From a bacterium (GTDB lineage Bacteria > Patescibacteriota > Saccharimonadia > UBA4664), in the NCBI GenBank assembly GCA_043740495.1, contig JAYUCF010000057.1, positions 1 to 33,623 of the forward strand: a stretch of DNA of 33,623 bases. The letters run 5' to 3'. Shown piece by piece: positions 1-12,834 of this stretch. The notes under the pieces were generated by a model. It made no database searches. It worked only from the letters and a program-made list of their open reading frames with translations, and had not been told where the DNA came from. Positions within the stretch are counted from its first letter, which is position 1, and every line of letters starts with the position of its first letter. Position numbers and translations under genes: made by a program.

Positions 1-857
1 GCCATAGCTTCGACTATGGGAAGGCCAAAGCCTTCGAATCTAGAGGCGCTGACAAGCGCGGTGGCGCTGTCGAGCATTTGAGCGTATTCTAGGTCGCTGG
101 CACCATTCCAGAACGTGACACGATCCGTAAACGGGGCGGCCAGTGTTTTGAGGGCGGCGAGACGATCGGGGGTTCCCCGGCCGGGTAGGTGGAGGTGATA
201 ATCGGGCAGGTATTGTAGCGCCCGTATGAGCAGCTCGGCGTTTTTGTAGGGAAGAAGAGTCCCCATGAAGACGAGCTCGGGCTTGATTTTTCCATGAGCT
301 TTGCCCGGTCCCAGGTTGGGTGGAGCGTTATAGACAACCTCCACCGGACGGTCTGTGAGATGATGTTTGAGAATATCTTGTTTGGTAGTTTCACTCACGG
401 TCACTAGGAGATCGGCCCGGTTGAGTATGAGTCGTTGCGGCCAGTACACGCGGTGCATGAGCCACAGGAAAAAGCTGGGGGAGGCACCCAAATAGCCGGA
501 CAAGGCCGGGTGTTTGAACTCGCTTACGTGCTTGAGGGTGTAGAGTACCAGGTCGTGCAGGGTGAAGATGAGCTTGTAGTGGCGGCCGAAGCTTCCCATG
601 ATCTGCATGGGGCTGTAGACCACATCGACGCCAAGCTTGTTTAGCCTCAACGGCAGGAGTAGCTCGCGGGGCGACAGAGGGTTGTTCACTAGGACATAAG
701 GGACGTTTTTGGGCAGCATTTCGAGCTGGCGAAGATCATAAATGAGAACAGTGACCGGCGTGAGCTTCATGAGTGCTTCGAGTAGGTTGGCGCCGAACCG
801 ACTAATACCGTCATGATGCCCTATTTTTGTCCAGCGAGAGTCAAAAATTACATTCAT
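1..857 (-). CDS. Glycosyltransferase family 4 (GT-B fold); N-terminus complete, C-terminus cut by window edge
   Basis: Not in the ORF track because it has no stop in the window. Own translation from ATG (857-855): MNVIFDSRWTKIGHHDGISRFGANLLEAL...LLVTVSETTKQDILKHH...ELVFMGTLLPYKNAELLIRAL...LVSASRFEGFGLPIVEAM. The last segment is the start of the E-x7-E motif of GT4 enzymes. Listed ORFs 89..394(-) and 435..644(+) are off-frame shadows. Confidence 0.8.
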   Translation of the reverse strand, partial: MNVIFDSRWTKIGHHDGISRFGANLLEALMKLTPVTVLIYDLRQLEMLPKNVPYVLVNNPLSPRELLLPLRLNKLGVDVVYSPMQIMGSFGRHYKLIFTLHDLVLYTLKHVSEFKHPALSGYLGASPSFFLWLMHRVYWPQRLILNRADLLVTVSETTKQDILKHHLTDRPVEVVYNAPPNLGPGKAHGKIKPELVFMGTLLPYKNAELLIRALQYLPDYHLHLPGRGTPDRLAALKTLAAPFTDRVTFWNGASDLEYAQMLDSATALVSASRFEGFGLPIVEAM

Positions 858-891
858 ATTACCAATACTCTATCATAAGTAGGATAGGGGT

Positions 892-900
892 TGGTATAAT
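892..900 (+). promoter_or_regulatory. Extended -10 promoter element TGgTATAAT for GT4 gene (leaderless configuration)
   Basis: TG at 892-893 and TATAAT at 895-900. Only 6 nt (gaagtt) separate the hexamer from ATG 907, with no Shine-Dalgarno. Confidence 0.5.
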
Positions 901-906
901 GAAGTT

Positions 907-2106
907 ATGCGTATATTAATTGCCTCCGATCTTTACTGGCCCACAATGAATGGTGTTGCCACATTTGGGCGTAATCTGGCTCAAGGCCTGGCTGAGCGTG
1001 GTCATGAAGTGGTGGTGGTAGCCCCGTCCCAGACTGGCAAGAAATATGTGGAAACGGATGGGAACTATCGGGTGATGCGCACGGCTTCGGTGGTATTTCC
1101 GTTCTATCAGAATTTGCGAGTTTCCTTGTCGCCTAATCGCGAGATAAACGAAATTACTAAAAATTTTAAGCCCGACATTATCCATCTGCAAACCCCGTTG
1201 GGAGTCGGACTTGGGGCAATTGGGGCAGCCAAGAAATATCACGTGCCGTTGGTAGCTACAAATCACTCTATGTCCGAAAATTTGATCGACAACCTCAAGC
1301 TTTTGGCGCCATTTGCACGTCAGATTGATTACATTTTGCGGCAGTACGGGAGCCGGTTTTACGGTAATGCCGACTTCGTGACGCTACCGACGGTGGCCGC
1401 AATTAGGATGCTGAACCCAGGTTCCTTTGCTAAACCGTACGTTGCTATTTCCAACGGCATAGATCTGAAGCGGTTTCATCCGGGAACAGTGGCGAAGGAG
1501 TTTTATGAGCGGTACAACATTCCAATGGATAAGCCAATCGTGATGTATCTTGGGCGGCTAGATGCGGAGAAGCATGTATCGATATTGTTGCGGGCATTAC
1601 AACATTTGGATACAAAATTACCGTACCACGCGGTGGTTGTAGGGGATGGTAATGATTTGTCTCATCTCATGGAAGTAGCGACCGATTTGGGTTTGGAAAA
1701 GCGGGTAACGTTCGTCGGAAGAATCGAAGAAGCTGATAAACCGATGATACTGCGGCTGGGAACTATTTTTGCAATGCCGTCGCCGGCGGAGCTGCAGAGT
1801 ATTTCCACGATGGAGGCCATGGCGAGCGGTATGCCGGTTGTGGCCGTGAATGCGGGGGCGTTGTACGAGCTGTGTCAGCACGAGCGTAACGGGTATTTAT
1901 TTGAAATAGATGATTATGAAATGATGGCCCGCGGTATTGGTATGTTGCTGGCTGATCGTGAGTTGGTTGAAACTATGAGCGCCCAGAGTAAGGAAATCGT
2001 GGCAAAACATGATCTTAGTGTGACCCTCGATAAATTTGAAGAATTATATGCCGGGGTGATTGCTCAGCGGGCTCCGGTAAAGTCGGAATTGTCGCAAGTA
2101 AGCTAG
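907..2106 (+). CDS. Glycosyltransferase family 4 (group 1 glycosyltransferase)
   Basis: 399 aa. N-terminus MRILIASDLYWPTMNGVATFGRNLAQGLAERGHEVVVVAPS is typical of the GT4 N-domain. The C-domain has FAMPSPAELQSISTMEAMASGMPVVA (E-x7-E region). Confidence 0.9.
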   Translation: MRILIASDLYWPTMNGVATFGRNLAQGLAERGHEVVVVAPSQTGKKYVETDGNYRVMRTASVVFPFYQNLRVSLSPNREINEITKNFKPDIIHLQTPLGVGLGAIGAAKKYHVPLVATNHSMSENLIDNLKLLAPFARQIDYILRQYGSRFYGNADFVTLPTVAAIRMLNPGSFAKPYVAISNGIDLKRFHPGTVAKEFYERYNIPMDKPIVMYLGRLDAEKHVSILLRALQHLDTKLPYHAVVVGDGNDLSHLMEVATDLGLEKRVTFVGRIEEADKPMILRLGTIFAMPSPAELQSISTMEAMASGMPVVAVNAGALYELCQHERNGYLFEIDDYEMMARGIGMLLADRELVETMSAQSKEIVAKHDLSVTLDKFEELYAGVIAQRAPVKSELSQVS

Positions 2107-2954
2107 CCGAGGAAGTCCGAGATGGCGTCGGACGCGGCGGCGGGCGTTTCGAGGTGTACAAGATGGCCGACTTTGGGAATCAAGATGAGCTCTGAACGGC
2201 TGATGGCGGCGTGGAGCTGGCGCTGAGAGCCGGCTGGGGCAATCGGATCCTGTTCGCCGGCAATGAGCAGGGTTTCTAGATGGATGCGGGCGGCATCGTC
2301 GAGAGCGGTCTTGGTGATGGAGGCGGCGAATGACTCGGCGATGGCGCGGGGGTGCTGAGCCTGATCGAGGTCGTCCAGATGGTGCTGGTACACGAGACGG
2401 CGCAATGCGGGGTCGCTGGTGCGGCTCAGCGATAGACTCATCGCTCGGTTGAAGAGGCGGCTGCCCAAAATCCACTGGCTGAAACCATCGGGGGTGTTCG
2501 TGCCCAGCCAGTAGTAGGCTTCCACGAGTTTGGTGACGGCGCCCTTGGCGCCAGTGCGGGGTGAGACAATGATCGGGTTGATTAGAATCAGTTTGGAGAA
2601 TAATTCCGGTTCTCGGGCTGCCAAATGGGCAGCCACAATGGTACCGAAGGAATGCCCCAGTAGTACCGGATGAGTTAGACCGGTGAGCTCCATGAACTGT
2701 CGGGCAAAATCGCTGTAGCCGTCGATGTCGTGGGGGCGATCGGTCATCGGCTGAGATTCGCCAAATCCGGGCAGGTCGGGGACCACAATCCGGTAACCGC
2801 TGAGGCCGGCAATGATGTACTTCAACCCTTGATGGTTACCCCGGAAGCCGTGCAGCATGAAGATGGTCTGCTGCTGGGTGGGATTATAGACCCAGTATTT
2901 CGTCTGGCTGCCGAAAATATCCAGGCTCAAGGCCTGAGAGTCTGACGGCTTCAT
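2103..2954 (-). CDS. Alpha/beta-fold hydrolase
   Basis: 283 aa. It has the HGFRGNHQG oxyanion-hole region, the nucleophile elbow GHSFGT (G-x-S-x-G) and a C-terminal GHLVHLE histidine. It converges on the GT4 gene with a 4-nt overlap. Confidence 0.85.
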   Translation of the reverse strand: MKPSDSQALSLDIFGSQTKYWVYNPTQQQTIFMLHGFRGNHQGLKYIIAGLSGYRIVVPDLPGFGESQPMTDRPHDIDGYSDFARQFMELTGLTHPVLLGHSFGTIVAAHLAAREPELFSKLILINPIIVSPRTGAKGAVTKLVEAYYWLGTNTPDGFSQWILGSRLFNRAMSLSLSRTSDPALRRLVYQHHLDDLDQAQHPRAIAESFAASITKTALDDAARIHLETLLIAGEQDPIAPAGSQRQLHAAISRSELILIPKVGHLVHLETPAAASDAISDFLG

Positions 2955-3150
2955 AGGGCGGCCAACGCGGATAGGGTGCTGCCGCTGGCGAGCCCGCCGA
3001 CATTAATCAGGTGAGCAGTTTTTTTAATGAGTTTCACGCCTTAGATTATATCACTTGGGCTAATATTCCCGGCGCAAACGCCCCGGCTACTCAACAGATT
3101 GAGAGGCCGGGGTGGTGCTATGGGACTGGACCGGGGGATAACAGGGTCAG

Positions 3151-3456
3151 TTACTGGTCGGCGGACTTGTGGTCCGATGGGTTGTCGGCCTCAGCCTCGT
3201 CGTGAAGATCGTTGTCATCGAGCTGGTCTTCGAGGTGGGGATTGGCGGAGGGCGTGATGGCCTCACCAAATCCGTCTTCTATGGCGCTCTCGGAGGGGCT
3301 CAGAGGCATCATTTCATCTTCAGACATGCCCTCCTCGGCAGTGTCCTCGGCGCCGATTCGCTCACCAAACTCGTCGAGCTCATACTCTGGTCCGTCGTAG
3401 ATACTTTCTCTCAAACCCGGGTCCATTCCCTCGTAATCAGTGAACTCCTGTTCCAT
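3151..3456 (-). CDS. Small highly acidic protein, FGERI-motif family (paralog 1)
   Basis: 101 aa, very D/E-rich. GGAGGTG Shine-Dalgarno lies 7 nt upstream of ATG 3456. It shares the motif DEFGERIGAED with ORFs at 8035..8262 and 10447..10653. Confidence 0.7.
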   Translation of the reverse strand: MEQEFTDYEGMDPGLRESIYDGPEYELDEFGERIGAEDTAEEGMSEDEMMPLSPSESAIEDGFGEAITPSANPHLEDQLDDNDLHDEAEADNPSDHKSADQ

Positions 3457-3632
3457 ACTCGCACCTCCACATTACGCTTTGAATGTTACGCCTAGCCTAG
3501 CGGTATGGCATTGTAGCCACCCCCAAAAAGCCAATGGAAATAACAGGAGTTTTTGGACATACCGTCGCTTTTTTCACAACAACACTTATGCTTCAATTAC
3601 AACATCTGAGCCGCGTATTGCAGCAGTAATAA

Positions 3633-3661
3633 TTGCGCAAACATCCCATATTTGCTATAAT
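3633..3661 (+). promoter_or_regulatory. Sigma70-type promoter of ssrA (-35 TTGCGC, 17-nt spacer, extended -10 TGcTATAAT)
   Basis: TTGCGC at 3633-3638, TG at 3653-3654, TATAAT at 3656-3661. The mature tmRNA 5' end lies 16 nt downstream, consistent with a short RNase P-processed leader. Confidence 0.6.
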
Positions 3662-3676
3662 CTGAGGGTAAATCGT

Positions 3677-4054
3677 GGGGCTGATCAGGCTCGACGTTGG
3701 GACTTTTACAAGCTATGTGCGCAGGTCGGAGGCAAACGTTAGATTCCATTAGTTAGCTTAACTGCCAACTTCATTTCGTGGGTGAAGGCTGCCTTTACGG
3801 TACCTTCATTCGCACCCGCTTACGCCTAATAACGTAAGCTATCGGCACCTGATTCCCGGTAGGGGTTCGTCGGTATCAAATCATCGGGACGCTCTTAGGG
3901 TTGGGCCTCTGCCCCTAAGCTAAGATCTGAGGATGCTCTCGTCACCGTTTGGTTTGCTCACAGGTGATGGGCTAAGACATGTAAGTAAACTAAGCCTGTA
4001 GTGCACTAGCGAGTAACCTGACGGACCGGGGTGCGATTCCCCGCAGCTCCACCA
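3677..4054 (+). ncRNA. ssrA: tmRNA (SsrA), one-piece, CCA encoded
   Basis: The 5' end GGGGCTGATCAGGCTCGACG resembles E. coli GGGGCUGAUUCUGGAUUCGACG. The 3' end has T-arm CGGGG(4027-4031)/TGCGATT/CCCCG(4039-4043) and acceptor strand CAGCTCC(4044-4050)+ACCA. The 7-bp acceptor stem includes a G3:U pair (alanine identity). The tag ORF starts at GCC 3764 (tmRNA nt 88) and ends TAATAA 3827-3832. The stops lie in the loop of hairpin GCTTACG/CGTAAGC (3818-3839), as in E. coli helix 5. Confidence 0.92.
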
Positions 4055-5558
4055 TAAGGGCATCTCTCGACAAAAGAGGTGCTTTTTTGGTGGTTGCTAA
4101 TCTGTAGAGAGGACTGATTTGGGTGGTGCTAACTTTTTTCATCGAGTCGAAGCGAATACCCGCAGGAAATAACAGTTGTTGGCACTCAGCCCTTGCTGAC
4201 TTGTCTAGGAGCCACCAATCCTCCTTCAGTTCATTCGCATATCCAAGCGCAAACTCAACGAATTCAATTAAGTCCTCCTGTAAATCGCTTTTATCTGCAA
4301 GTTTACCTTCAATCTCCGCCACCTCAGCTTTTATGGCTTGAATTTCATCCTGCAAGTCACTCTTTAAGAGTTCTGAAGCAGCAGCAAACTCCCTGAGTAA
4401 ATGAGATTTGCTTGTTCTGAGTGTGTCCAGGCGCTTAGATAGTGCAGTGGCTTCCGCTAGAGAGTATTCCTGTTCTTTGCCCCAAACAGCGGTCAAGGCA
4501 CCAATAAATTCCTTGAGTTGGGTCCCCGTATATTCAAATCGGGACAGGGTTTCTGTTAGAGCGTCATTTATCTCCTCGCGCTTGTATTGTTTACCGCAAT
4601 TTCTGCACCGATATTTTGGGTACTTACCTCCGTGCCCGTTTCCTTGAAAGGAGCCGGTAAATTTAGCGCCCTCTAAGCAGTCATGTTCAAGCAGGTTGTT
4701 CAAGGGGAACTCAGGATTATATTGTTGCCGCTTATATTGGCGAGTTTTTCTCCCATTCAAGATGGCGCAAATTGCGTTGTGTTGTTCAGGAGTTATCATT
4801 TTTTCATGCCTACCAACCTCGCAGCGTGCCTTTACTTGCCGATCCATTTGCACAATGCCGGCATAGTAGGGGTGCTTAATATACGTAAGAAACTTGTCGA
4901 TTTTCAGAGGTGCCCTGCGCTTCGTAAAATCACTTGAATTCAGTCGTTTTAGGGCCTCTGCGGGCGTTGCAAAGCCCGATGCAATATCCTGCAAAGCCGT
5001 TTGCAATGGTATGAACTCAGTTGGATGGGGGATATGCACCCCAGGCTCGTGGCCCTTCATGTACCCTGCCTTTGGCGGGAACGTGTATCTGCCTTCTCTG
5101 ATAGCTTTTTCGTGCCCCGATATAGACTTTGTTTGCCGTTCAAGGTTACTTCCTTCGGCGGCAAGGTACTTAGTGAATTTGAGCAACTTTGCTCCGAGGT
5201 CTGAAGTGTTGAGCGAAGGGTCGGAGGCGTACCAGACCTTTACCCCGAGCTGTCTAAATAGGACTTCAAAAAACGCTGCTTCATCGATTGAGCGCATAAA
5301 TCTGTCGGGCTCGTCTACTATCAGGTACTTAACGGATCTATGGAGTCTGCAGTATTCCAGCATTTGCTTTAGGTCTTTGCGGTTGACGTTAGTACCTTCT
5401 TTACTAGAAACGTCACCTGACCACCATCCGTCATCTGGTATTTCAGCGCCGAGTTCCGTGGCGGCCTTCAGAACGCTCTCTTCCTGGCGGTTTAAGCTAT
5501 TGTTGGACCTTTGTTCCGGTGTAGATACCCGGCACGCTGCTATAGCGAGTAGTTTCAT
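3990..5558 (-). CDS. Large serine recombinase (integrase of the ssrA-inserted element)
   Basis: 522 aa. N-terminal resolvase-type catalytic domain has MKLLAIAACRVSTPEQRS (catalytic Ser in RVST-x-x-Q) and VDEPDRFMRS. A recombinase domain follows, then a Zn-ribbon region (DCLEG...YRCRNCGKQY) and a long coiled coil (LQDEIQAIKAEVAEIEGKL). The 3' end overlaps the tmRNA 3' end. Confidence 0.9.
   Translation of the reverse strand: MKLLAIAACRVSTPEQRSNNSLNRQEESVLKAATELGAEIPDDGWWSGDVSSKEGTNVNRKDLKQMLEYCRLHRSVKYLIVDEPDRFMRSIDEAAFFEVLFRQLGVKVWYASDPSLNTSDLGAKLLKFTKYLAAEGSNLERQTKSISGHEKAIREGRYTFPPKAGYMKGHEPGVHIPHPTEFIPLQTALQDIASGFATPAEALKRLNSSDFTKRRAPLKIDKFLTYIKHPYYAGIVQMDRQVKARCEVGRHEKMITPEQHNAICAILNGRKTRQYKRQQYNPEFPLNNLLEHDCLEGAKFTGSFQGNGHGGKYPKYRCRNCGKQYKREEINDALTETLSRFEYTGTQLKEFIGALTAVWGKEQEYSLAEATALSKRLDTLRTSKSHLLREFAAASELLKSDLQDEIQAIKAEVAEIEGKLADKSDLQEDLIEFVEFALGYANELKEDWWLLDKSARAECQQLLFPAGIRFDSMKKVSTTQISPLYRLATTKKAPLLSRDALMVELRGIAPRSVRLLASALQA
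4060..4088 (+). terminator. Rho-independent terminator of ssrA, located inside the recombinase CDS (antisense)
   Basis: Stem GCATCTCT(4060-4067)/AGAGGTGC(4075-4082) with one G:U, loop CGACAAA, then TTTTTT 4083-4088. It begins 6 nt after the tmRNA CCA. Confidence 0.75.
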
Positions 5559-6038
5559 CTTTTGCCTTCAGAGCAGCAGTGGCAGCCCCTGGGGAACGCC
5601 GTGCGAGACGGCAACAGAGACTGCCACTGATGTTCAAAGCCGTAATATTCTCGCATGCTTGTTCCCATAGCCATTATTGCTCTATTCGTTTTTTTTCGAA
5701 AGATTTTTCTTTGATTCGTATCTCTTGTATAAGTAATTTGCCCATTCGTTCAGTTGTATTTTTGTGAGAGCCTTAGCTACGCGGGCTTGAGAGTTGTCTT
5801 CCGCATTCTTCTGTTTATAGCCGGAATCCTTACGCACGATGTCTCCACGCTATTGGTATAGCTTGGTGAGACTACCGCAAGGTATGGCTTATGCCGCTCT
5901 TGGCATCTACCTCACCCTAATGCGATTGCTCCGCAGCGCCCTTTGCAGGGGTGTACCTTGGTCGCTCTAGGGCACAGTTAATGTAACGTAATTATTATGC
6001 CCCCGCTTGATAATTACAACTTAATATAAAATGTCTGT

Positions 6039-6422
6039 ATGGGGCAAAATGAGACAATTATGATGCTAAGTTCACAACAGCGGTTGTTTATCGACTATCT
6101 GGCGGCAGGTCAAATAGATGTCGATGGAAACAAACTAACATATGAGGAATTCGCAAAGGTGCTTGGGGTAAATCGTAAGACGTTATATCGGTGGAAAGAA
6201 GAGATTCCTGGCTTCTGGGACTACGTAGCCAAACGCTCAGCCTACTTCGTAGCTAGATACGTGCCGAAAATCCATCAAGCATTGTTAGTTAGAGCGCTGA
6301 AAGGTGACGTAGGTGCTGCGAAATTATTGCTTAACCAGGCGAGCGTTCTTAGGCCGTTACCCTCCTCCAAGAATATCGGCTATCTGACCGTAACAATCGA
6401 TGAGGTACTAAATAAGGCCTAA
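6039..6422 (+). CDS. Helix-turn-helix DNA-binding protein, small-terminase/phBC6A51-like (possible regulator or directionality factor)
   Basis: 127 aa. LSSQQRLFIDYLAAG...TYEEFAKVLGVNRKTLYRWKEEIPGFWDYV is an HTH. The following ALLVRALKGDVGAAKLLLNQ resembles the helical tail of TerS-like HTH proteins. Family assignment is from memory only. Confidence 0.55.
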   Translation: MGQNETIMMLSSQQRLFIDYLAAGQIDVDGNKLTYEEFAKVLGVNRKTLYRWKEEIPGFWDYVAKRSAYFVARYVPKIHQALLVRALKGDVGAAKLLLNQASVLRPLPSSKNIGYLTVTIDEVLNKA

Positions 6423-6976
6423 AAACATGGAGTTGGGTTCTGCGCTCCAAAGGCATTTGGAAAGCACATAATGGGGGCTGGCCGAGTATAAGTCTGCTGC
6501 TGTCTCGTTCCAATAATTTCCTCAGCGGCCTTAGGCTGCAATGAGACCCAACTATCAATTTCAGTTTTACTTACTTGAATATTCCCGCGATAAGTAACTC
6601 TATAGCGGTGCATCTTAATTCCGGTCTCTGCTGTCGATGTAAAACTTGAGTAGCTTGAGTCATAAAATTGGCTGTAAGTAATAATTGGGTCGCCTGGATA
6701 TATAGTTTCCTTTTCATCGACATTTACTGAGTGCTGAATATTAAGCACTTCTTGAGCCTTGGTCCAGGTATCATTAAGTATTTTTTCGCCGTATGCACTT
6801 CTTGAGAATAAAAGCGCTACTAATATCGCTAAAACCGCTATACCGGCAGCTAAGAGGGGTTTTCGTGACCTTTTCCGCTCTATTATTTGAGTCTGTTGCC
6901 CACATTGAGCGCAGAATTTGGCATGCTTTTTTACGGTATGTCCGCACTTCGCACATTTTGTTCTTGAGAGAGGCAT
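6419..6976 (-). CDS. Zinc-ribbon / single-pass membrane protein with G5-like extracytoplasmic domain
   Basis: 185 aa. N-terminus has CAKCGHTVKKHAKFCAQCGQ (C-x2-C...C-x2-C). A basic stretch precedes TM helix LLAAGIAVLAILVALLF. The C-terminal segment HRYRVTYRGNIQVSKTEIDSWVSLQPKAAEEIIGT resembles a G5 domain. The gene is low in GC. Confidence 0.6.
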   Translation of the reverse strand: MPLSRTKCAKCGHTVKKHAKFCAQCGQQTQIIERKRSRKPLLAAGIAVLAILVALLFSRSAYGEKILNDTWTKAQEVLNIQHSVNVDEKETIYPGDPIITYSQFYDSSYSSFTSTAETGIKMHRYRVTYRGNIQVSKTEIDSWVSLQPKAAEEIIGTRQQQTYTRPAPIMCFPNAFGAQNPTPCF

Positions 6977-7110
6977 ATTATATCGTTAATGCTTTGACCA
7001 AAAGTATCTATGTAAAGCGTTGTTTTAGCAATACAAAGGCAGTTTAACTTGCGGTGTTAAAGCACTTTGAAGGCCCCCCTATAGAATCCCTTGGCTCGCG
7101 CATAGGGTAA

Positions 7111-7275
7111 GTAGGGGAAGGCAGTATCGTTGGGTGCGAATCCTCTATGTGAGTCACCAAGTAGGAAGGTGGGATTCGCTGAGAATCTGTCTTTTGTACT
7201 GCAAGTTTAGAAATGACCTCCAGCGAGCAACCTCATTGAGCAAAGGGTGCCAACTATCAACCACTTGCTCCACCA
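7111..7275 (+). repeat. Degenerate duplicate of the tmRNA 3' portion (candidate displaced native ssrA 3' end / attR side)
   Basis: Short blocks are colinear with the live tmRNA. GTAGGGG 7111 vs 3859. GTATC 7124 vs 3873. GTCACC 7153 vs 3941. AGCGAGcAACCT 7222-7233 vs AGCGAGtAACCT 4008-4019 (11/12). GGGTGC 7245 vs 4029. GCTCCACCA 7267-7275 vs 4046-4054 (9/9). In addition GGGTGCGAaTCC 7132-7143 matches the T-arm GGGTGCGAtTCC 4029-4040 at 11/12. No intact T-arm can be folded in the copy. Confidence 0.5.
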
Positions 7276-7309
7276 AAAAAGACTTTTCATCAAACGAAAA
7301 GTCTTTTTT
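7275..7309 (+). terminator. Strong (bidirectional-type) rho-independent terminator directly after the remnant CCA
   Basis: Perfect 14-bp stem AAAAAAGACTTTTC(7275-7288)/GAAAAGTCTTTTTT(7296-7309), loop ATCAAAC. Its position right after ...GCTCCACCA mirrors the terminator after the live tmRNA. Confidence 0.85.
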
Positions 7310-7372
7310 GTTTGAGTTTAGCTACAGGGATAAGCAAAGGGATTTTAATTGATAAGGTTGCGGGAGGTTATA

Positions 7373-7401
7373 TTGACAAAGTAGTAAATTTATGCCAAAA
7401 T
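7373..7401 (+). promoter_or_regulatory. Promoter: -35 TTGACA, 17-nt spacer, extended -10 TGcCAAAAT
   Basis: TTGACA at 7373-7378, TG at 7393-7394, CAAAAT at 7396-7401. It lies upstream of the 7466 CDS. Confidence 0.55.
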
Positions 7402-7465
7402 GTTTATTGACCTTGATAACTCGACACAGGTAAGCACTCACCCAACACCTACAGGGAGGCACGTC

Positions 7466-7903
7466 ATGTTCTCGAGGCAGAATACTACCTGCATACGTCC
7501 CGAAGCACTCGCAGCCGCCCGATGGTGGGGCGATCAGCTTCGCGGCCCAACTCAGCGCAATATCAGCGGTGATTCAACTACGGTTGGTGCGGAGCTCACT
7601 AAGGCCGCACCGGCGGCAGACGCTGAGCTCAACTCGCACGACGTCACCGAGGATCGCATTGTGCAGTTCGAGGCAAAGTTGGCTGAGACCATTTCAGCTC
7701 AGCTGAATATGCCTCGGGAATATGACGTGCAGGTGAGCGTAGGCTACGATCCCAACAAGACCGTGTACAAAGCCGCTCAGGACGCCGGTATACCCTCTGC
7801 GATGATATTCTTCTCCTCGAAAACCGTCATGGTCATCAGGGATGGGGAAGTCAAGGTGAGCGCGGGTTACTGTGCCAAGTTCGTAAATGTTCCTATGAGC
7901 TGA
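7466..7903 (+). CDS. Hypothetical protein (unknown function)
   Basis: The track ORF starts at 7400. I prefer the in-frame ATG 7466, which is preceded by GGGAGG (7454-7459). High GC, host-like. Sequence features: RPEALAAARWWGDQLRG...VSVGYDPNKTVYKAAQDAGIP. I recognise no family. A GC-rich nested hairpin plus T-run follows the stop (about 7921-7980). Confidence 0.6.
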   Translation: MFSRQNTTCIRPEALAAARWWGDQLRGPTQRNISGDSTTVGAELTKAAPAADAELNSHDVTEDRIVQFEAKLAETISAQLNMPREYDVQVSVGYDPNKTVYKAAQDAGIPSAMIFFSSKTVMVIRDGEVKVSAGYCAKFVNVPMS

Positions 7904-8034
7904 CCCTCCGGGTCGGCTCCGCGCCCCGCAAGGACGAATCAACACCCACCAGGGTGGAGCCTCGTTTCGGCGGGGCTTTTAGTTTGCAGAAATAACGCCC
8001 CGGAGCTGGTGCAGCGGCTAAACTCGTGGGCAGC

Positions 8035-8262
8035 TCAGGGGTTTTCTTGCTCTTTGTGACGCAAATACCATTCAGCTAAGTCGTCATCTTCGCTGTAATG
8101 TCCCTCGGAATGCGTGTCTGGATCTTTGGGAACGGCTGAGTTGCCCATGCTGTTGCGATCGATGCGCTCGCCGAATGTCTCGGCTCTTTCGACCGTTTGG
8201 GCATCACTGGCTTGGTCACCCATGTCCATATCGAGTTCTTGTTGCTGATCGTCCTTATCCAT
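8035..8262 (-). CDS. Small highly acidic protein, FGERI-motif family (paralog 2)
   Basis: 75 aa. It has AETFGERIDRNS and C-terminal DDLAEWYLRHKE, both shared with paralog 3. Confidence 0.7.
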   Translation of the reverse strand: MDKDDQQQELDMDMGDQASDAQTVERAETFGERIDRNSMGNSAVPKDPDTHSEGHYSEDDDLAEWYLRHKEQENP

Positions 8263-8378
8263 ACCCTGCCAGTATCAATGCGAATATGATAGCGGTCATA
8301 GTGCGCGGTGGCATTAGTCAATTCGCCTAAATATTCGGTAATTAGAACGGCGTATGCTGATTTGAAATGTAATGTGTC

Positions 8379-9269
8379 ATGAGTATGAAGAAGCGCAAAC
8401 TAGGTGAGCTGGAAGTTTCGGCGATGGGCCTGGGCTGTAGGGGGATGAGTGAATTTTACGGAGAGACAGATGAGGCGGAGAGCCTGCGGACGATTGATCG
8501 GGCACTGGAGCTGGGTATCAACTTCTTGGATACGGCCGATATGTATGGTCCGTTTACGAATGAGGTGCTGGTCGGGAAAGCCATTAAACATAGGCGTAAT
8601 GATGTAATTTTGGCAACGAAATTTGGTAATGTACGCACTGAAGATGGTGATTGGCTGCCATGAAACGGTAAGCCCGAATACGTAAAACAGGCTTGCGATG
8701 CCAGCTTGAAGCGGTTGGTGACCGATCACATTGATTTGTATTATCTGCACCGGGTAGATGATTCGATGCCGATCGAGGACACGGTGGGAGCGATGGCTGA
8801 GCTCGTGAAAGAAGGGAAGGTGGGCTATATCGGACTGAGCGAGGCGGCGCCGGAGACGATTCGGCGGGCGGCTAAGGTGCATACCATTACGGCGCTACAG
8901 ACGGAGTATTCGCTGTGGAGTCGTGACCCGGAGGAGGATATTTTGGCGACGGTGCGCGAGCTCGGGATTGGATTCGTGGCGTATAGCCCGCTGGGTCGGG
9001 GCTTTTTGACGGGGCACTTTAAGCAGCCGGAGGATATTCCAAAAGAAGATTATCGAAGCCGTCTACCGCGGTTTCAGGGTGAGAACTTCTACAAGAACCT
9101 AGAGTTGGTGAAGCTGTTGGAGGAGATGGCCGTTGAGAAGGGTTTGACGGTGTCGCAGCTGGCGATTGCCTGGGTAATGGGCCAAAGCCGCGATATTGTA
9201 CCGATTACTGGCACAAAGCGGTCGACGGCGGGTGACAGGTATGGGGATATGTCGAGTGTGAATCGCTAG
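8379..9269 (+). pseudogene. Aldo/keto reductase pseudogene (in-frame TGA plus internal in-frame deletion)
   Basis: ORFs 8379..8663 and 8706..9269 are in the same frame. TGA at 8661-8663 interrupts ...[40 protein letters not shown], which is otherwise a contiguous AKR sequence. After IVPITGTKR (to 9221) the usual roughly 30-35 aa (x-x-L-E-E-N...) are missing. The sequence jumps to the family-typical C-terminus [13 protein letters not shown]-stop. Confidence 0.8.
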
Positions 9270-9416
9270 AGGGGTGATTCTTGGGCGCTTATTTAACCTA
9301 GCGTGCGGTTGCGCCGGCCTCGGCGTCAAAGTAGTGCGGTCATGAGTGTGGTGATACATCGACAAACAGCAGCCGGTTATGTCCAGTCTAGTATCAAGTA
9401 CCGCATAAACGCTTTG

Positions 9417-9450
9417 CGGCCGAGGAGACGATTGTCTCCTCGGCCGTTTT
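9417..9450 (+). terminator. Orphan strong intrinsic terminator
   Basis: Perfect 13-bp stem CGGCCGAGGAGAC(9417-9429)/GTCTCCTCGGCCG(9434-9446), loop GATT, then TTTT 9447-9450. It lies 147 nt from the nearest credible ORF end. Confidence 0.7.
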
Positions 9451-9695
9451 GCCGTCGGTGGACAGGCAGTGGTTTGTAATTTTGTCCGGATACCTAGATC
9501 GGATGGGGCTCCCGCAGGAGGATGAACCATTCGTTTTGGAAGATGAGGTTGGCGGTAGGGAAGGCGGCCGCAGCGTCGGAAGCATCGCCAAACCCGTGCG
9601 GGCCGGTGGGTCTAGTGGCGCGCGCGTGGCGGTATCACTCAGAGGATGAGACTACCGGTTGTGGGCGGCCGAGTGAAGGCTTCGTGTGAAGTATT

Positions 9696-10088
9696 TCAGT
9701 CGGCGTGCGTGAAGGGGAGGCCGGATCTTGCTGATTCCAAGTAGCTCGTCTCGGGGTGGGTGAGTGCGTGGCTGGCGTGGATGTCTGCGGTGTAGCCACA
9801 GGTTTTGCACTGCCGTCTGACGGTGTTCAGACCGTCCTCGATAACGACCCGGCTGGCAAAGTAGCCTTTCGAGTAGAAGCCGATGCGCGGCTCTCGGCCA
9901 ACGTAAGGACAGGTTCGACGCTCGGCGTTGAGGACCTCGTGGGCTAGCTCATCGGTCAGGCGGAGGCGGTGAAAGCCACCAAACCTGGACTTGGACGTGC
10001 GCAACGGGGTGTAGGTACGTCCATTGCCGATTAAGGCGCACAGAGGGGACTCAGTCAATTTTCCATTGCGATATACCTTGATGTCCAA
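9696..10088 (-). CDS. Hypothetical protein (four Cys, possible Zn-binding; no family recognised)
   Basis: 130-aa ORF with protein-like composition. Notable segments are ...RTCPYVGREPRIGFYSKGYFASRVVIEDG...RQCKTCGYT. Host-like GC. Confidence 0.5.
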   Translation of the reverse strand: MDIKVYRNGKLTESPLCALIGNGRTYTPLRTSKSRFGGFHRLRLTDELAHEVLNAERRTCPYVGREPRIGFYSKGYFASRVVIEDGLNTVRRQCKTCGYTADIHASHALTHPETSYLESARSGLPFTHAD

Positions 10089-10276
10089 GGTGAACCTTTC
10101 GGTCTGGTTGAGTGGTCAGAGATGCTCAATTAACAGAGTTAAGGCTGTCGAAAAGTTATACTACTGTACGATAAATTATATCGTATGTAAATGGATTGTC
10201 GAAGAGCAAGTTTAGTCCTAGCATAAGCACACCCAACTCAACCTGGTATGATTGGGGCAATGGTTATAGGGAGTGC

Positions 10277-10444
10277 ATGATGGTGCGTTTGAGTGCAATA
10301 TCTAGTGGGCCGGTCGGTGCGCAGGCAACCTCCACCACCGCGCCGGTAATGGCGGGAGTGCCGGTGATGCTGTTTGGGATAGTATTTTTGGTGGTACTGG
10401 CGGCTTTTCTGATCTGGTACATGATTATGCGCCGGCGCCCGTAA
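10277..10444 (+). CDS. Small membrane protein (C-terminal TM helix followed by RRRP)
   Basis: The track ORF starts at 10196. I prefer in-frame ATG 10277, preceded by AGGGAG. An extended -10 TGgTATGAT sits at 10244-10252. TM segment: VPVMLFGIVFLVVLAAFLIWYMIM. Confidence 0.45.
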   Translation: MMVRLSAISSGPVGAQATSTTAPVMAGVPVMLFGIVFLVVLAAFLIWYMIMRRRP

Positions 10445-10446
10445 GT

Positions 10447-10653
10447 TTAGTTGTGGCGGTCGAGCCACTCTCCAAGCTCGTCGTGGTCACGGTAGATTAG
10501 TTCACCATATTCGTCGGTCAGCTCCTGGTTGGCACTAGTATTCTCTTTTGCATTTTCAATTCTTTCTCCGAATGTAGGCGGATCATCTATTAGTTTTGTT
10601 TCATGGACTACATGATTCCTATCGCCACGCTGATTGCTTTGATCGTCTTCCAT
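10447..10653 (-). CDS. Small highly acidic protein, FGERI-motif family (paralog 3)
   Basis: The track start 10665 is TTG. I prefer ATG 10653, with GAGGG 5 nt upstream. It has PPTFGERIENAK and C-terminal DELGEWLDRHN. It lies 27 nt downstream of the methyltransferase on the same strand. Confidence 0.7.
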   Translation of the reverse strand: MEDDQSNQRGDRNHVVHETKLIDDPPTFGERIENAKENTSANQELTDEYGELIYRDHDELGEWLDRHN

Positions 10654-10680
10654 CTCAACCCTCAACCTTATTGGAGAATC

Positions 10681-11436
10681 CTAGGGCGCGAATGGAGAAT
10701 ATGCATTGGCGGAATTGCCAACAACTTTCCGGCAAACGAAGTAGACACGGTCGGAGCGGTCGGTGGGTGGTTGGTGGTTAGAATCGAACCTTTCAAGAAC
10801 CTCGAAAGTGGTCTCAAGCTCAGCGGTGACTTGTTCGATAGGGAAGGAAGCTTCATTCACTCGCTCTTGATAGACCTGGATAGCGCCATCGGATCCGGTT
10901 TCCTGAATGGTGACGTGCCAAACAACTTCATTGGTACTGATCGGCTCGATAATCATTTCCATAGTTCCGGTTTTGAAGTTTTGGACGAAACTCGGGACGG
11001 CCGTGAGGGCCTGCAAACGCTCTACGGTGTCCATATCGAAGATGAACAATCCATTTGAACACAGATGTTTTTTAGCACTGGCAAAGAGTTTTTGCCAATC
11101 AGAATAATCAATAAGATGGTTCAGCGTATCAAAAACGCAAATTATGATGTCGAACTGCTGATGCAGTTCAAAGCCGGCGATGGTACCTTGATGAAGGGTA
11201 GCGGCTGGGAGCTTGTGTTGTGCTATTTGCAACATATTGGCGGATTGGTCGATGCCGTGAAGTTCAAATTTGTCGCTAAAACCGGCCATGATACTACCGG
11301 TGCCGCAACCAAGCTCGAGCAGGGAGGCGGCGGCGGGGTGGTGGCGGTTGATGGCAGCGGAAACGATGCTAATAACGTCGCCGCGATCGCCCATGGCGGT
11401 GTCGTAGAAAGGTGCAAATTGGTCGTAGTGAGACAT
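10681..11436 (-). CDS. Class I SAM-dependent methyltransferase
   Basis: Motif I is LLELGCGTGS. The N-terminus MSHYDQFAPFYD is typical for the family. I chose start ATG 11436 rather than 11490 because the longer form overlaps the divergent MFS gene. TATAAT (11448-11443 on the minus strand) lies 6 nt upstream of that ATG. Confidence 0.85.
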   Translation of the reverse strand: MSHYDQFAPFYDTAMGDRGDVISIVSAAINRHHPAAASLLELGCGTGSIMAGFSDKFELHGIDQSANMLQIAQHKLPAATLHQGTIAGFELHQQFDIIICVFDTLNHLIDYSDWQKLFASAKKHLCSNGLFIFDMDTVERLQALTAVPSFVQNFKTGTMEMIIEPISTNEVVWHVTIQETGSDGAIQVYQERVNEASFPIEQVTAELETTFEVLERFDSNHQPPTDRSDRVYFVCRKVVGNSANAYSPFAP

Positions 11437-11460
11437 AGGCCCATTATAGCCTCTCTGGCG

Positions 11461-11469
11461 TGCTAAAAT
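11461..11469 (+). promoter_or_regulatory. Extended -10 TGcTAAAAT, 6 nt before ATG of MFS gene (leaderless configuration)
   Basis: TG at 11461-11462, TAAAAT at 11464-11469, ATG at 11476. Confidence 0.5.
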
Positions 11470-11475
11470 CTGCTC

Positions 11476-12834
11476 ATGACACGTAAACAAGTTCTGACAT
11501 TGGCGGCCACCATCATTGGGAGCGGGCTAGTGATCCTCGACGGAGTGGTGGTGAACTTGGCCCTGCCAAAAATCGGTATCGATTTGCATGCGAGCTTCGC
11601 GGCGCTGCAATGGATTGTTGATGGTTATCTGCTGAGCTTGTCGGCCTTGATCTTGCTGGGAGGGTCGGTAGGAGATATCTTCGGACAGCGCCGGGTATAC
11701 TTCACGGGATTGGTGGGATTTGGAGCGGCATCACTGTTGTCCGGATTGGCACCTAACCAAGAAACGCTCATAGCTTTGAGGATGGTACAGGGTGTATTCG
11801 GGGCCTTGTTGGTACCGAGCGGACTGGCGATAATCAATACGAACTTTCCGCCTCAGATGCGGGCCGCCGCGATTGGGCGGTGGACGGCTTATTCGGCGAT
11901 TGTGACGGCGGCGGGACCCTTACTCGGCGGGTATCTGGTAGACGCCGGCTCGTGGAGGTTAATTTTCTTCATCAACGTACCGTTGGTACTGGTAACGTTG
12001 CTGATGGCGCGGGCCGGCATGGAGCAGCATACCGGAGATCGGAGTCGGCGGGTGGATGTCGGCGGAGCGGCTCTTGCCATGGCGGGGCTGGGCAGCTTGA
12101 CGTACGGGCTGATCGAAGGTCCGGTGACGCATTGGGCCGCGGCTGAAGTGCTGGCGATAGCGGCCGGAATAGTCCTAATGATTGGTTTCGGCTGGTACGA
12201 GCGCCGTCAGTCGGACCCGATGCTCAAGCTGGATTTATTTAAGTCGAGAAATTTTCTTGCAGCAAATATTACAACGTTTTCGATGTATGGCGGCCTCGGC
12301 GGTTTCTTGTTCGCACTGGCAATCTACCTCCAAACGACGGCCGGCTACACAACGCTGCAGGCTGGTGCGAGTTTGCTGCCGATCACGATAATTTTGTTTT
12401 TGGTGTCGGCTCGGGCGGGTGAGTGGGCTGGGGCTCACGGACCGAGAAGGCTGATGACAGTCGGACCACTGCTGGCCGGTACCGGAATCGGGATGCTGGC
12501 GTTCGTGGGCAAGTCGGCGCCGTATTTCACGCGCGTGCTGCCGGGAATCGCGGTGTTTGCGCTGGGGCTGGCGCTGACGGTGGCACCGTTGACGGCAACC
12601 GTAATGGGCTCAGTAGACGAGCAGGACTCGGGGATAGCCTCGGGGGTGAACAACGCCGTATCGCGGGTGGCGGGATTATTTGTTATTGGATTGCTAGGTT
12701 TGTTTGGAGCGGCGAGTTCCTACCAGTTTGCAGCTATCTTGTGTGCGTCATTGGCGGCTTTAGCCGGGGTGATATCATATTTCATGATTAACGACCGGCA
12801 GATCGTGAAAGGTGGCGTTCAGGAGCGGACGTAG
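11476..12834 (+). CDS. MFS transporter, DHA2/EmrB-QacA-like drug:H+ antiporter type
   Basis: 452 aa, polytopic. N-terminus LAATIIGSGLVILDGVVVNLALPKIGIDLHASFAALQWIVDGYLLSLSALILLGGSVGDIFGQRRVY is characteristic of 14-TMS DHA2 members. Confidence 0.85.
   Translation: MTRKQVLTLAATIIGSGLVILDGVVVNLALPKIGIDLHASFAALQWIVDGYLLSLSALILLGGSVGDIFGQRRVYFTGLVGFGAASLLSGLAPNQETLIALRMVQGVFGALLVPSGLAIINTNFPPQMRAAAIGRWTAYSAIVTAAGPLLGGYLVDAGSWRLIFFINVPLVLVTLLMARAGMEQHTGDRSRRVDVGGAALAMAGLGSLTYGLIEGPVTHWAAAEVLAIAAGIVLMIGFGWYERRQSDPMLKLDLFKSRNFLAANITTFSMYGGLGGFLFALAIYLQTTAGYTTLQAGASLLPITIILFLVSARAGEWAGAHGPRRLMTVGPLLAGTGIGMLAFVGKSAPYFTRVLPGIAVFALGLALTVAPLTATVMGSVDEQDSGIASGVNNAVSRVAGLFVIGLLGLFGAASSYQFAAILCASLAALAGVISYFMINDRQIVKGGVQERT

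Follow-up and report, generated by a model that had tools for sequence, protein, structure and literature searches.

The closest precedents for the element described here are DsiB of the Dehalococcoides ssrA islands and the SSV-type integrases of archaea. DsiB is a serine recombinase of about 540 amino acids encoded beside attL at the transfer-messenger RNA (tmRNA) gene; its reading frame runs antisense into ssrA and ends at a stop codon outside the island (2011, PMC3146451). The authors proposed that the gene is perhaps fully functional only on the circular form, and they reported alignments that were 'divergent' beyond attL, with no conserved C-terminal tail (PMC3146451). The islands have a 20-bp direct repeat, are inserted at the T-loop, carry a small recombinase (DsiA) and a six-gene integration module and measure about 12 kb or more (PMC3146451). 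Archaeal viruses and plasmids encode tyrosine integrases of the SSV type, called 'suicidal', with attP within the integrase open reading frame (ORF) and a tRNA gene as target; the integrase gene is split by integration and made whole again by excision (Badel et al. 2020, PMC7253208; PMC8371274). The stretch analysed here, 33,623 nucleotides of contig JAYUCF010000057.1 (Patescibacteriota; Saccharimonadia) and below called the window, very probably contains a 3.2-kb mobile element (4055-7266) that entered the tmRNA gene within its final 9 bases. The region 7111-7309 is then the attR of this element and holds the final 37 codons of the large serine recombinase (LSR) that the element itself encodes, separated from the rest of a gene that would be whole only in the free circle.

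As in the DsiB system, the LSR ORF (3990-5558, minus strand) overlaps the tmRNA gene (3990-4054) at attL. Unlike in the DsiB islands, the shared core is 9 bp at the acceptor/CCA end and not 20 bp in the T-loop, the element is 3.2 kb long with neither DsiA nor a six-gene module, and both attR and the free circles carry a conserved tail. Most members of the LSR family target tRNA genes, and the comparison with DsiB is drawn from its published description. The likeness to the SSV type is that attP lies inside the recombinase ORF and that the gene is split on integration. The SSV enzymes are, however, archaeal tyrosine recombinases whose genes are left inactive in two large fragments, whereas the window encodes a bacterial LSR that loses its last 37 codons only and keeps all recognised domains. 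With the tDNA islands of tyrosine integrases the element shares insertion at the 3' end of a tRNA or tmRNA gene that is kept functional. Islander-type islands carry a long tDNA 3' copy and a homologous fragment at the far end, whereas the window repeats 9 bp and has recombinase coding sequence at the far end. The Islander paper states that no serine recombinase is known to have tRNA genes as targets; the niche has long been attributed to tyrosine integrases only (PMC4383910). A literature search of incomplete coverage found no paper describing this LSR family of Saccharibacteria. As judged from a modelled homologue, the family resembles the Bxb1, phiC31, A118/LI and SPbeta integrases in having a catalytic domain, a recombinase domain and a zinc ribbon with coiled coil, together with a very short att identity. 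The known phage LSRs have protein-coding or intergenic targets and an attP outside the int ORF, and they require a separate directionality factor.

The sole stretch exactly common to attL and attR in the window is GCTCCACCA, and a direct-repeat search of 3600-12000 found no long repeat of the tmRNA end. The flagged region runs from P arm to core to native terminator, which is the order of an attR; the first-pass annotation had already placed the attR side of an ssrA element here, and the 9-bp repeat of the tmRNA end followed by the native terminator bears this out. On the minus strand, the frame of the tail continues the LSR ORF across the 9-bp core. Joined at the 9-mer (4055 and then 7266 downward), the ORF stays open for 37 more codons, through ..SWHPLLNEVARWRSFLNLQY.., and gives 541 amino acids ending in ..MVEQVVDSWHPLLNEVARWRSFLNLQYKRQILSESHLPTW-stop. 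In the integrated form the last 21 codons are antisense to the tmRNA 3' end (3990-4054), and the 18 codons after MVE read LRGIAPRSVRLLASALQA-stop. The annotation foresaw correctly that the recombinase would change its end on excision, while the end it proposed, ..RLLAGGHF-stop, is replaced by the one given above. The exact crossover dinucleotide presumably lies within the shared 9 bp.

The tail is recognisable as recombinase sequence from homologues. The LSR has 641 homologues in the search, and their ends were inspected among the 120 listed (P0001-P0120), which are almost all from Saccharibacteria/Patescibacteria. Most of these are 517-522 amino acids long and end in antisense tRNA or tmRNA peptides (..SLMVELxGxAPxS.. 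or ..LVRVRGL-stop), and a few longer ones (P0012, P0048 and P0079) run on as ..MVELIEKSWHSIEQEISRWRSLLVVPYQ... When the window tail is compared with each of these three, none of 2000 shuffles is as good. A hidden Markov model (HMM) built from 53 tails of other genomes has one match in the six-frame translated window, at 7270-7190 on the minus strand (E 1.4e-6; next best 0.42). The tail consensus, KSxHxIxxEIxRWRxILxVPYQEY, is predicted to be helical. At its conserved positions (E, R, W, R, L, V, P and Y) every synonymous codon occurs, six for Leu and six for Arg, which argues that the tail is under selection as protein.

Free and integrated copies of the family differ in where the tail is found. 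The contigs of P0012 (4719 bp) and P0079 (6537 bp) have ends overlapping by 25 and 21 nt, which indicates that they are circles; neither carries a tRNA or tmRNA gene, and on both the tail is contiguous with the LSR. Read in the sense of the target gene, the circles have T-run, hairpin, TGGTG core and tail around the join. A scan of GTDB genomes gave 80 family loci, again almost all in Saccharibacteria/Patescibacteria. A tRNA or tmRNA gene on the opposite strand abuts the LSR in 49 of the 73 loci with a complete LSR 3' end; the target is tRNA-Gly in 33, and Lys, Phe, Glu, Val, Ala and Arg tRNA genes and tmRNA also occur. The tail HMM has 54 matches at E<1e-3 in 47 of the 80 loci, every one on the LSR strand and 53 of them upstream of the LSR, so that in these 47 loci the tail is detached and lies a few kb upstream of the LSR. 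Identity between attL and attR is 5-12 bp only, from the CCA end of the tRNA or tmRNA (TGGTGC.., TGGTGGAGC), and the elements measure 3.5-11 kb; the window element, with 3221 bp between its cores, is the smallest of the series. An independent tmRNA-inserted copy (L010; such numbers denote loci or genomes of relatives) has an LSR 61% identical to that of the window. The tail of this LSR is found on the same strand 4.85 kb upstream, where it immediately follows TGGTGGAGC and adjoins a different, native-looking terminator. Circles and insertions of one family suggest, indirectly, that the LSR catalyses attP x attB recombination.

Several detached tails lie upstream of a single LSR in L044 (1170, 4757, 6049), L053 (2133, 5623, 7334) and L022 (3371, 7223), an arrangement suggestive of tandem arrays or of remnants that earlier insertions left behind at one tRNA gene. 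A scan of IMG/VR gave only two family loci, both insertions in tRNA-Gly genes; recognised phage contigs do not typically carry the family.

The recombinase itself has the hallmarks of an LSR. The catalytic domain is matched by Pfam Resolvase (PF00239, E 1.4e-13, residues 6-157), the only domain that Pfam finds, and R10-V11-S12, with the catalytic serine, is close to invariant among 34 homologues. The match to the PHROG 95 integrases (E 1.5e-37) covers residues 2-448. Searches of the PDB by phmmer gave no match and a profile search matched the catalytic domain only, and a comparison of folds was therefore needed. It was made on the homologue P0012, 54% identical, rather than on the window protein. 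The AlphaFold2 model of P0012 (mean predicted local distance difference test score, pLDDT, 77.7) has a beta-ribbon with conserved Cys and long helices at 352-430, and a recombinase domain and a zinc ribbon with embedded coiled coil are present in its C-terminal part. Over about 515-535 columns Foldseek aligns it with SPbeta-type integrase complexes (E 3e-13), Bxb1 (2e-11) and the C-terminal part of LI integrase (2e-8). The predicted fold of the family is that of a large serine integrase, and the att sites with few shared base pairs, 9 in the window and 5-12 in the family, are also those of an LSR. In the model the join lies in a predicted disordered linker past the last strands of the zinc domain, and the tail would form a helix at 516-529.

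The tmRNA gene at the left end is native. It is the single tmRNA gene in the window according to ARAGORN. The nearest genome found, L001 (Patescibacteria UBA6017), is 78-83% identical over window positions 1-4054, and its alignment and synteny end exactly at 4054, the end of the tmRNA. This genome is without the recombinase element and has the same tmRNA 3' end through CCA save one extra C in the T-arm, and 4020-4054 is therefore native and not a replacement brought by the element. No synteny with L001 or L011, a distant Saccharimonadales genome, was found to the right of the tmRNA; the downstream region is therefore variable, and the ancestral junction of the host species is not obtainable from these two genomes.

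The two terminators fit this assignment of host and element DNA. The hairpin at 4055-4090 is element DNA. An equivalent hairpin with T-run is found in L010 and in the circular L008, and the conserved KK(D) codons of the family-wide ..NKKDL.. recombinase motif are the antisense of the U-tract and stem of the element terminator. Here, as at the attL sites of the family, one stretch doubles as coding sequence and terminator. The terminator at 7274-7310, which stands after ..CTCCACCA, is read as the native tmRNA terminator because in L011 a similar terminator, AAAAAGACTTTTC..GGTCTTTTTTTG, comes straight after a tmRNA-like gene with the end GCAGCTCCACCA.

The tmRNA-like gene of L011 (1917-2473, 557 nt) begins with GGGGCTG and ends with a T-arm and CAGCTCCACCA. 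It is missed by ARAGORN and scores under the Rfam gathering threshold, being an unusually long or interrupted tmRNA. In L001 a duplicate of about 105 bp of the tmRNA 3' end and terminator lies on the minus strand at 8155-8060 and 7375-7270, flanking about 780 bp in which there are two small ORFs but no recombinase gene. The pair is the remnant of a long-repeat tDNA island of the classic kind and differs from the 9-bp type of the window.

The P arm contains two short motifs that are conserved as DNA, and both are putative protein-binding sites. The K-S-L-H codons that precede the tail (D-S-W-H in the window) have zero synonymous variation (AAA 21/21, AGT 21/21, TTA 26/26, CAC 42/42), which identifies the stretch as a DNA motif, AAAGTT(T/G)(A/G)CAC at core+20. 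This motif 1 is probably a binding site of the recombinase. In most family members a second copy of the P-arm motif, motif 2, lies 92-115 nt from motif 1 and about 11 nt past the stop codon of the tail. It occurs in 32 of 54 family arms at core+112 to +137, as GGAGTTACAC in tRNA-targeting members and as AATAGCACCC in L010, and may serve as an accessory site. In the tmRNA-targeting members (the window and L010) motif 2 has GCACC and motif 1 GCAC, as in the T-arm of tmRNA, whereas the tRNA-targeting members have ACAC. In the window, L010 and L012 the distance from the 9-bp core out to the start of GCAC is 16 nt in the P arm, against 11 nt in the tmRNA arm. A structural model of LI integrase by Rutherford et al. 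in 2013 reportedly predicts an outward shift of 5 bp for the zinc-domain motif in attP relative to attB. Two of the blocks listed in the first-pass annotation are thus probably shared recognition motifs, to judge from their sequence and spacing, and not a sign of descent from tmRNA. Likeness between B arm and P arm was considered as a rule for the family and rejected: z is about 0 in most pairs, and of 21 other attL/attR pairs 19 show no such likeness.

The annotation had taken 7111-7275 for a collinear, degenerate copy of the tmRNA 3' portion, that is, the displaced and decayed native ssrA end, with the crossover in the AGCGAG-AACCT block and the functional tmRNA 3' end (4020-4054) brought in by the element. 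Such a copy is the usual signature of tyrosine-integrase tDNA islands (PMC4383910). The six blocks it listed do exist, with some starts off by one: GTAGGGG (3859 and 7111), GTATC (3873 and 7124), GTCACC (3941 and 7153), AGCGAG(T/C)AACCT (4008 and 7222), GGGTGC (4029 and 7245, also 7132) and GCTCCACCA (4046 and 7267). The terminator reported behind them is present (Table 1), and from the sequence no T-arm can form in 7111-7275, as the annotation also stated. A strict alignment (+2/-3) of 3840-4100 against 7060-7330 is not above shuffles. Permissive scoring is significant, driven by the core and the two terminators, and for this reason the region was split into distal, proximal and core parts. 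The distal part (3859-4007 against 7111-7221) is at chance (P 0.26-0.92), whereas the proximal part (4000-4045 against 7210-7266) is above dinucleotide shuffles (z ~5, P<=0.002), the signal coming from AGCGAG(T/C)AACCT and GGGTGC. Two 12-mers matching at 11/12 were observed against 0.07 expected (P ~0.001-0.002). This proximal likeness and the 11/12 block speak for a displaced ssrA end, but a tmRNA covariance scan of 6800-7500 gave no tmRNA match even at E<=10, with noise on the hairpin only, and ARAGORN finds the live tmRNA gene only. The contiguous repeat is 9 bp only and does not extend from the crossover to the 3' end as the homology of a displaced tDNA fragment should. The proposed crossover and the imported 3' end are both contradicted by L001, whose tmRNA has the 3' end of the live gene (4020-4054) through CCA, one extra C apart, without the element, and by the family, in which attL/attR identity is confined to the CCA end. 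The tail encoded by 7154-7266 adjoins the LSR without a break where the family occurs as free circles, which makes it element DNA and not host DNA, and none of the 120 listed homologues ends in ..RLLAGGHF. The segment 7111-7266 is the P arm of the element, encoding the conserved recombinase tail on the minus strand, and a decayed ssrA end is highly improbable.

An unlikely but less remote idea, compatible with the element model, is that the core-proximal P arm is partly derived from a tmRNA 3' end, by way of an ancient capture or a gene conversion. The degenerate copy of the annotation would then be right as history, although the DNA now encodes the recombinase tail. The idea would account for the proximal likeness, and the T-arm-like motif 2 matches at 11/12 in the window and at 10/11 in L010. 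The absence of arm-to-arm likeness in those 19 other pairs argues against it. So does the position of the AGCGAG(T/C)AACCT match (4008-4019, 7222-7233), which sits in the conserved tail codons E-V-A-R-W in another frame than the antisense tmRNA and for which we have no explanation. Motifs 1 and 2 also recur with different sequence (AGTTTACAC) in tRNA-targeting members, and binding sites would therefore fit better than descent. The tail could also be what remains of an earlier, now decayed element of a tandem array and be foreign to the present recombinase gene, with the true right end elsewhere, since arrays and remnants do occur at these sites, as seen in the two or three tails of L044, L053 and L022 and the repeat-flanked remnant in L001. 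This is very unlikely, because the window has a single tail match, the frame is continuous with the resident LSR without stop or frameshift, the low G+C content spans exactly 4055 to about 7400, and the 3.2 kb are near the family range. The tail is moreover of the tmRNA type (SWH, GCACC motifs), as in other tmRNA-targeting members. Chance matches beside an unrelated terminator would suit the distal part and the many blocks that are only 5-7-mers. They would leave an exact 9-mer at the exact tmRNA end, the adjoining terminator and an in-frame conserved tail to coincidence, in a pattern that is repeated in 47 loci, and have a negligible probability. Some observations weigh against the reading of an attR with a detached recombinase tail. 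Neither the empty attB nor the attP junction of the window element was found in public data (query GCTCCACCAAAAAAGACTTTTC), a genome scan giving only the distant L011 and a metagenome scan none. AlphaFold2 places the tail of P0012 at pLDDT<50, which does not inform on a structural role, and the likeness of the tmRNA arm and the P arm beside the core (z ~5) is not accounted for by the element model.

In the proposed mechanism, a small circular element would carry attP within the 3' end of its own recombinase gene. The LSR would recombine attP with an attB made up of the ssrA 3' end and its terminator (a tRNA 3' end in relatives), with the crossover within the 9-bp GCTCCACCA. The predicted junctions are ..CAACCACTT-GCTCCACCA-TAAGGGCATC.. 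for attP and ..CCCCGCA-GCTCCACCA-AAAAAGACTTTTC.. for attB. Because attP lies within the LSR reading frame, integration would have three effects: the tmRNA sequence stays intact and its terminator is replaced by 4055-4090, antisense in LSR codons; the native terminator is moved to 7274-7310; and the last 37 LSR codons (7154-7266, minus strand) are severed, so that the integrated gene continues for 18 codons in antisense tmRNA sequence. On excision, 4055.. and ..7266 would be joined again, restoring a 541-amino-acid LSR with a predicted helical tail. Our preferred guess is that, through the tail, the two isoforms have different activities or directions. A more specific version, which is possible but rather doubtful, is that the tail swap is a built-in switch of directionality or commitment. 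The 541-amino-acid form, with a conserved amphipathic tail and made from the circle alone, would drive attP x attB integration, the tail-less isoform would be inert, locking the insertion, or would perform attL x attR without a directionality factor, and motif 2, about 110 bp from motif 1, would be an accessory site like those of resolvase res sites. If so, this would be a substrate-encoded control of LSRs for elements of 3-11 kb in a family specialised on tRNA and tmRNA 3' ends in Patescibacteria.

Serine integrases are prized as tools because they are simple and one-directional, and the direction is usually credited to a separate directionality factor. A large and little-annotated LSR family has attP in its own reading frame, and for that reason each integration changes the C-terminus of the enzyme and each excision restores it. 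One idea that becomes directly testable is that the recombinase isoform records whether the element is a circle or an insert. The family targets tRNA and tmRNA 3' ends and keeps the target working through a terminator that doubles as coding sequence. Annotation is affected as well, in that most database entries for 'recombinase' proteins of the family bear artefactual tails from antisense tRNA or tmRNA. Island finders that seek a displaced tDNA fragment will miss these elements, as will pipelines requiring both the Resolvase and the Recombinase Pfam domains, since most members show Resolvase only.

Table 1. Features of the element and of its surroundings in the window, by position.
Feature	Position	Strand	Basis and remarks
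Live tmRNA gene (ssrA), native through CCA end	3677..4054	+	ARAGORN; Rfam RF00023, 101.9 bits; 3' end like that of L001
LSR ORF, integrated form, 522 amino acids	3990..5558	-	Pfam Resolvase; PHROG 95; 641 homologues
attL core GCTCCACCA	4046..4054		Last 9 nt of tmRNA: acceptor 3' strand, discriminator and CCA; crossover presumably inside
Integrated element, about 3.2 kb	4055..7266		Low G+C; L001 synteny stops at 4054; defined by attL and attR
Element-supplied Rho-independent terminator for tmRNA (P' arm)	4055..4090	+	Fold -17.8 kcal/mol, z -4.3; antisense within recombinase codons ..TTKKAPLLSRDALM..
Cargo 127-amino-acid helix-turn-helix (HTH) protein, terminase-small-subunit-like / excisionase-like	6039..6422	+	Pfam HTH_Tnp_1_2, E 4.9e-12; PHROG terS, E 8.6e-11; NCBIfam excisionase domain, E 7e-4, under cutoff
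Cargo 185-amino-acid zinc-ribbon protein with hydrophobic segment	6419..6976	-	Pfam Zn_Ribbon_1/DZR, weak, under cutoff
Motif 2 (putative site), T-arm-like, GGATTCGCACCC on minus strand (GGGTGCGAATCC on plus; also given as ATTCGCACCC)	7132..7143	-	11-15 nt past tail stop codon; the 11/12 T-arm match of the first-pass annotation
Detached recombinase 3' end, 37 codons QVVDSWHPLLNEVARWRSFLNLQYKRQILSESHLPTW and stop (7154-7156)	7154..7266	-	In frame with 4055-5558 across the core
Motif 1 (putative site), AGTTGGCACC on minus strand, at core+20	7246..7255	-	Contains the GGGTGC block of the first-pass annotation; at core+20/21 in at least 33 of 54 arms
attR core GCTCCACCA	7267..7275		Exact repeat of 4046-4054
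Native tmRNA terminator (B' arm), moved 3.2 kb away by the insertion	7274..7310	+	15-pair stem and T-run; -17.0 kcal/mol, z -5.5

The G+C content is 0.41-0.50 across 4001-7500 and 0.50-0.60 on both flanks. Besides the LSR the element encodes an HTH protein, a zinc-ribbon protein and small ORFs, with no second Resolvase match. From its domain matches, the HTH protein could serve as a directionality factor, or it could be the protein by which a satellite-like element hijacks packaging. The cargo ORFs of the window have no tblastn match in L008, L009 or L010, where the LSR alone is matched.

The first ORF to the right of attR (7400-7903, plus strand) matches PHROG 8937, of unknown function (E 7e-13), and the region there may be a further mobile remnant at the same hot spot. 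Beyond it, an oxidoreductase-like frame (aldo/keto reductase as read from the translations) is split over two consecutive ORFs on the plus strand (8379-8663 and 8706-9269), which may reflect a frameshift, a pseudogene or a sequencing error.

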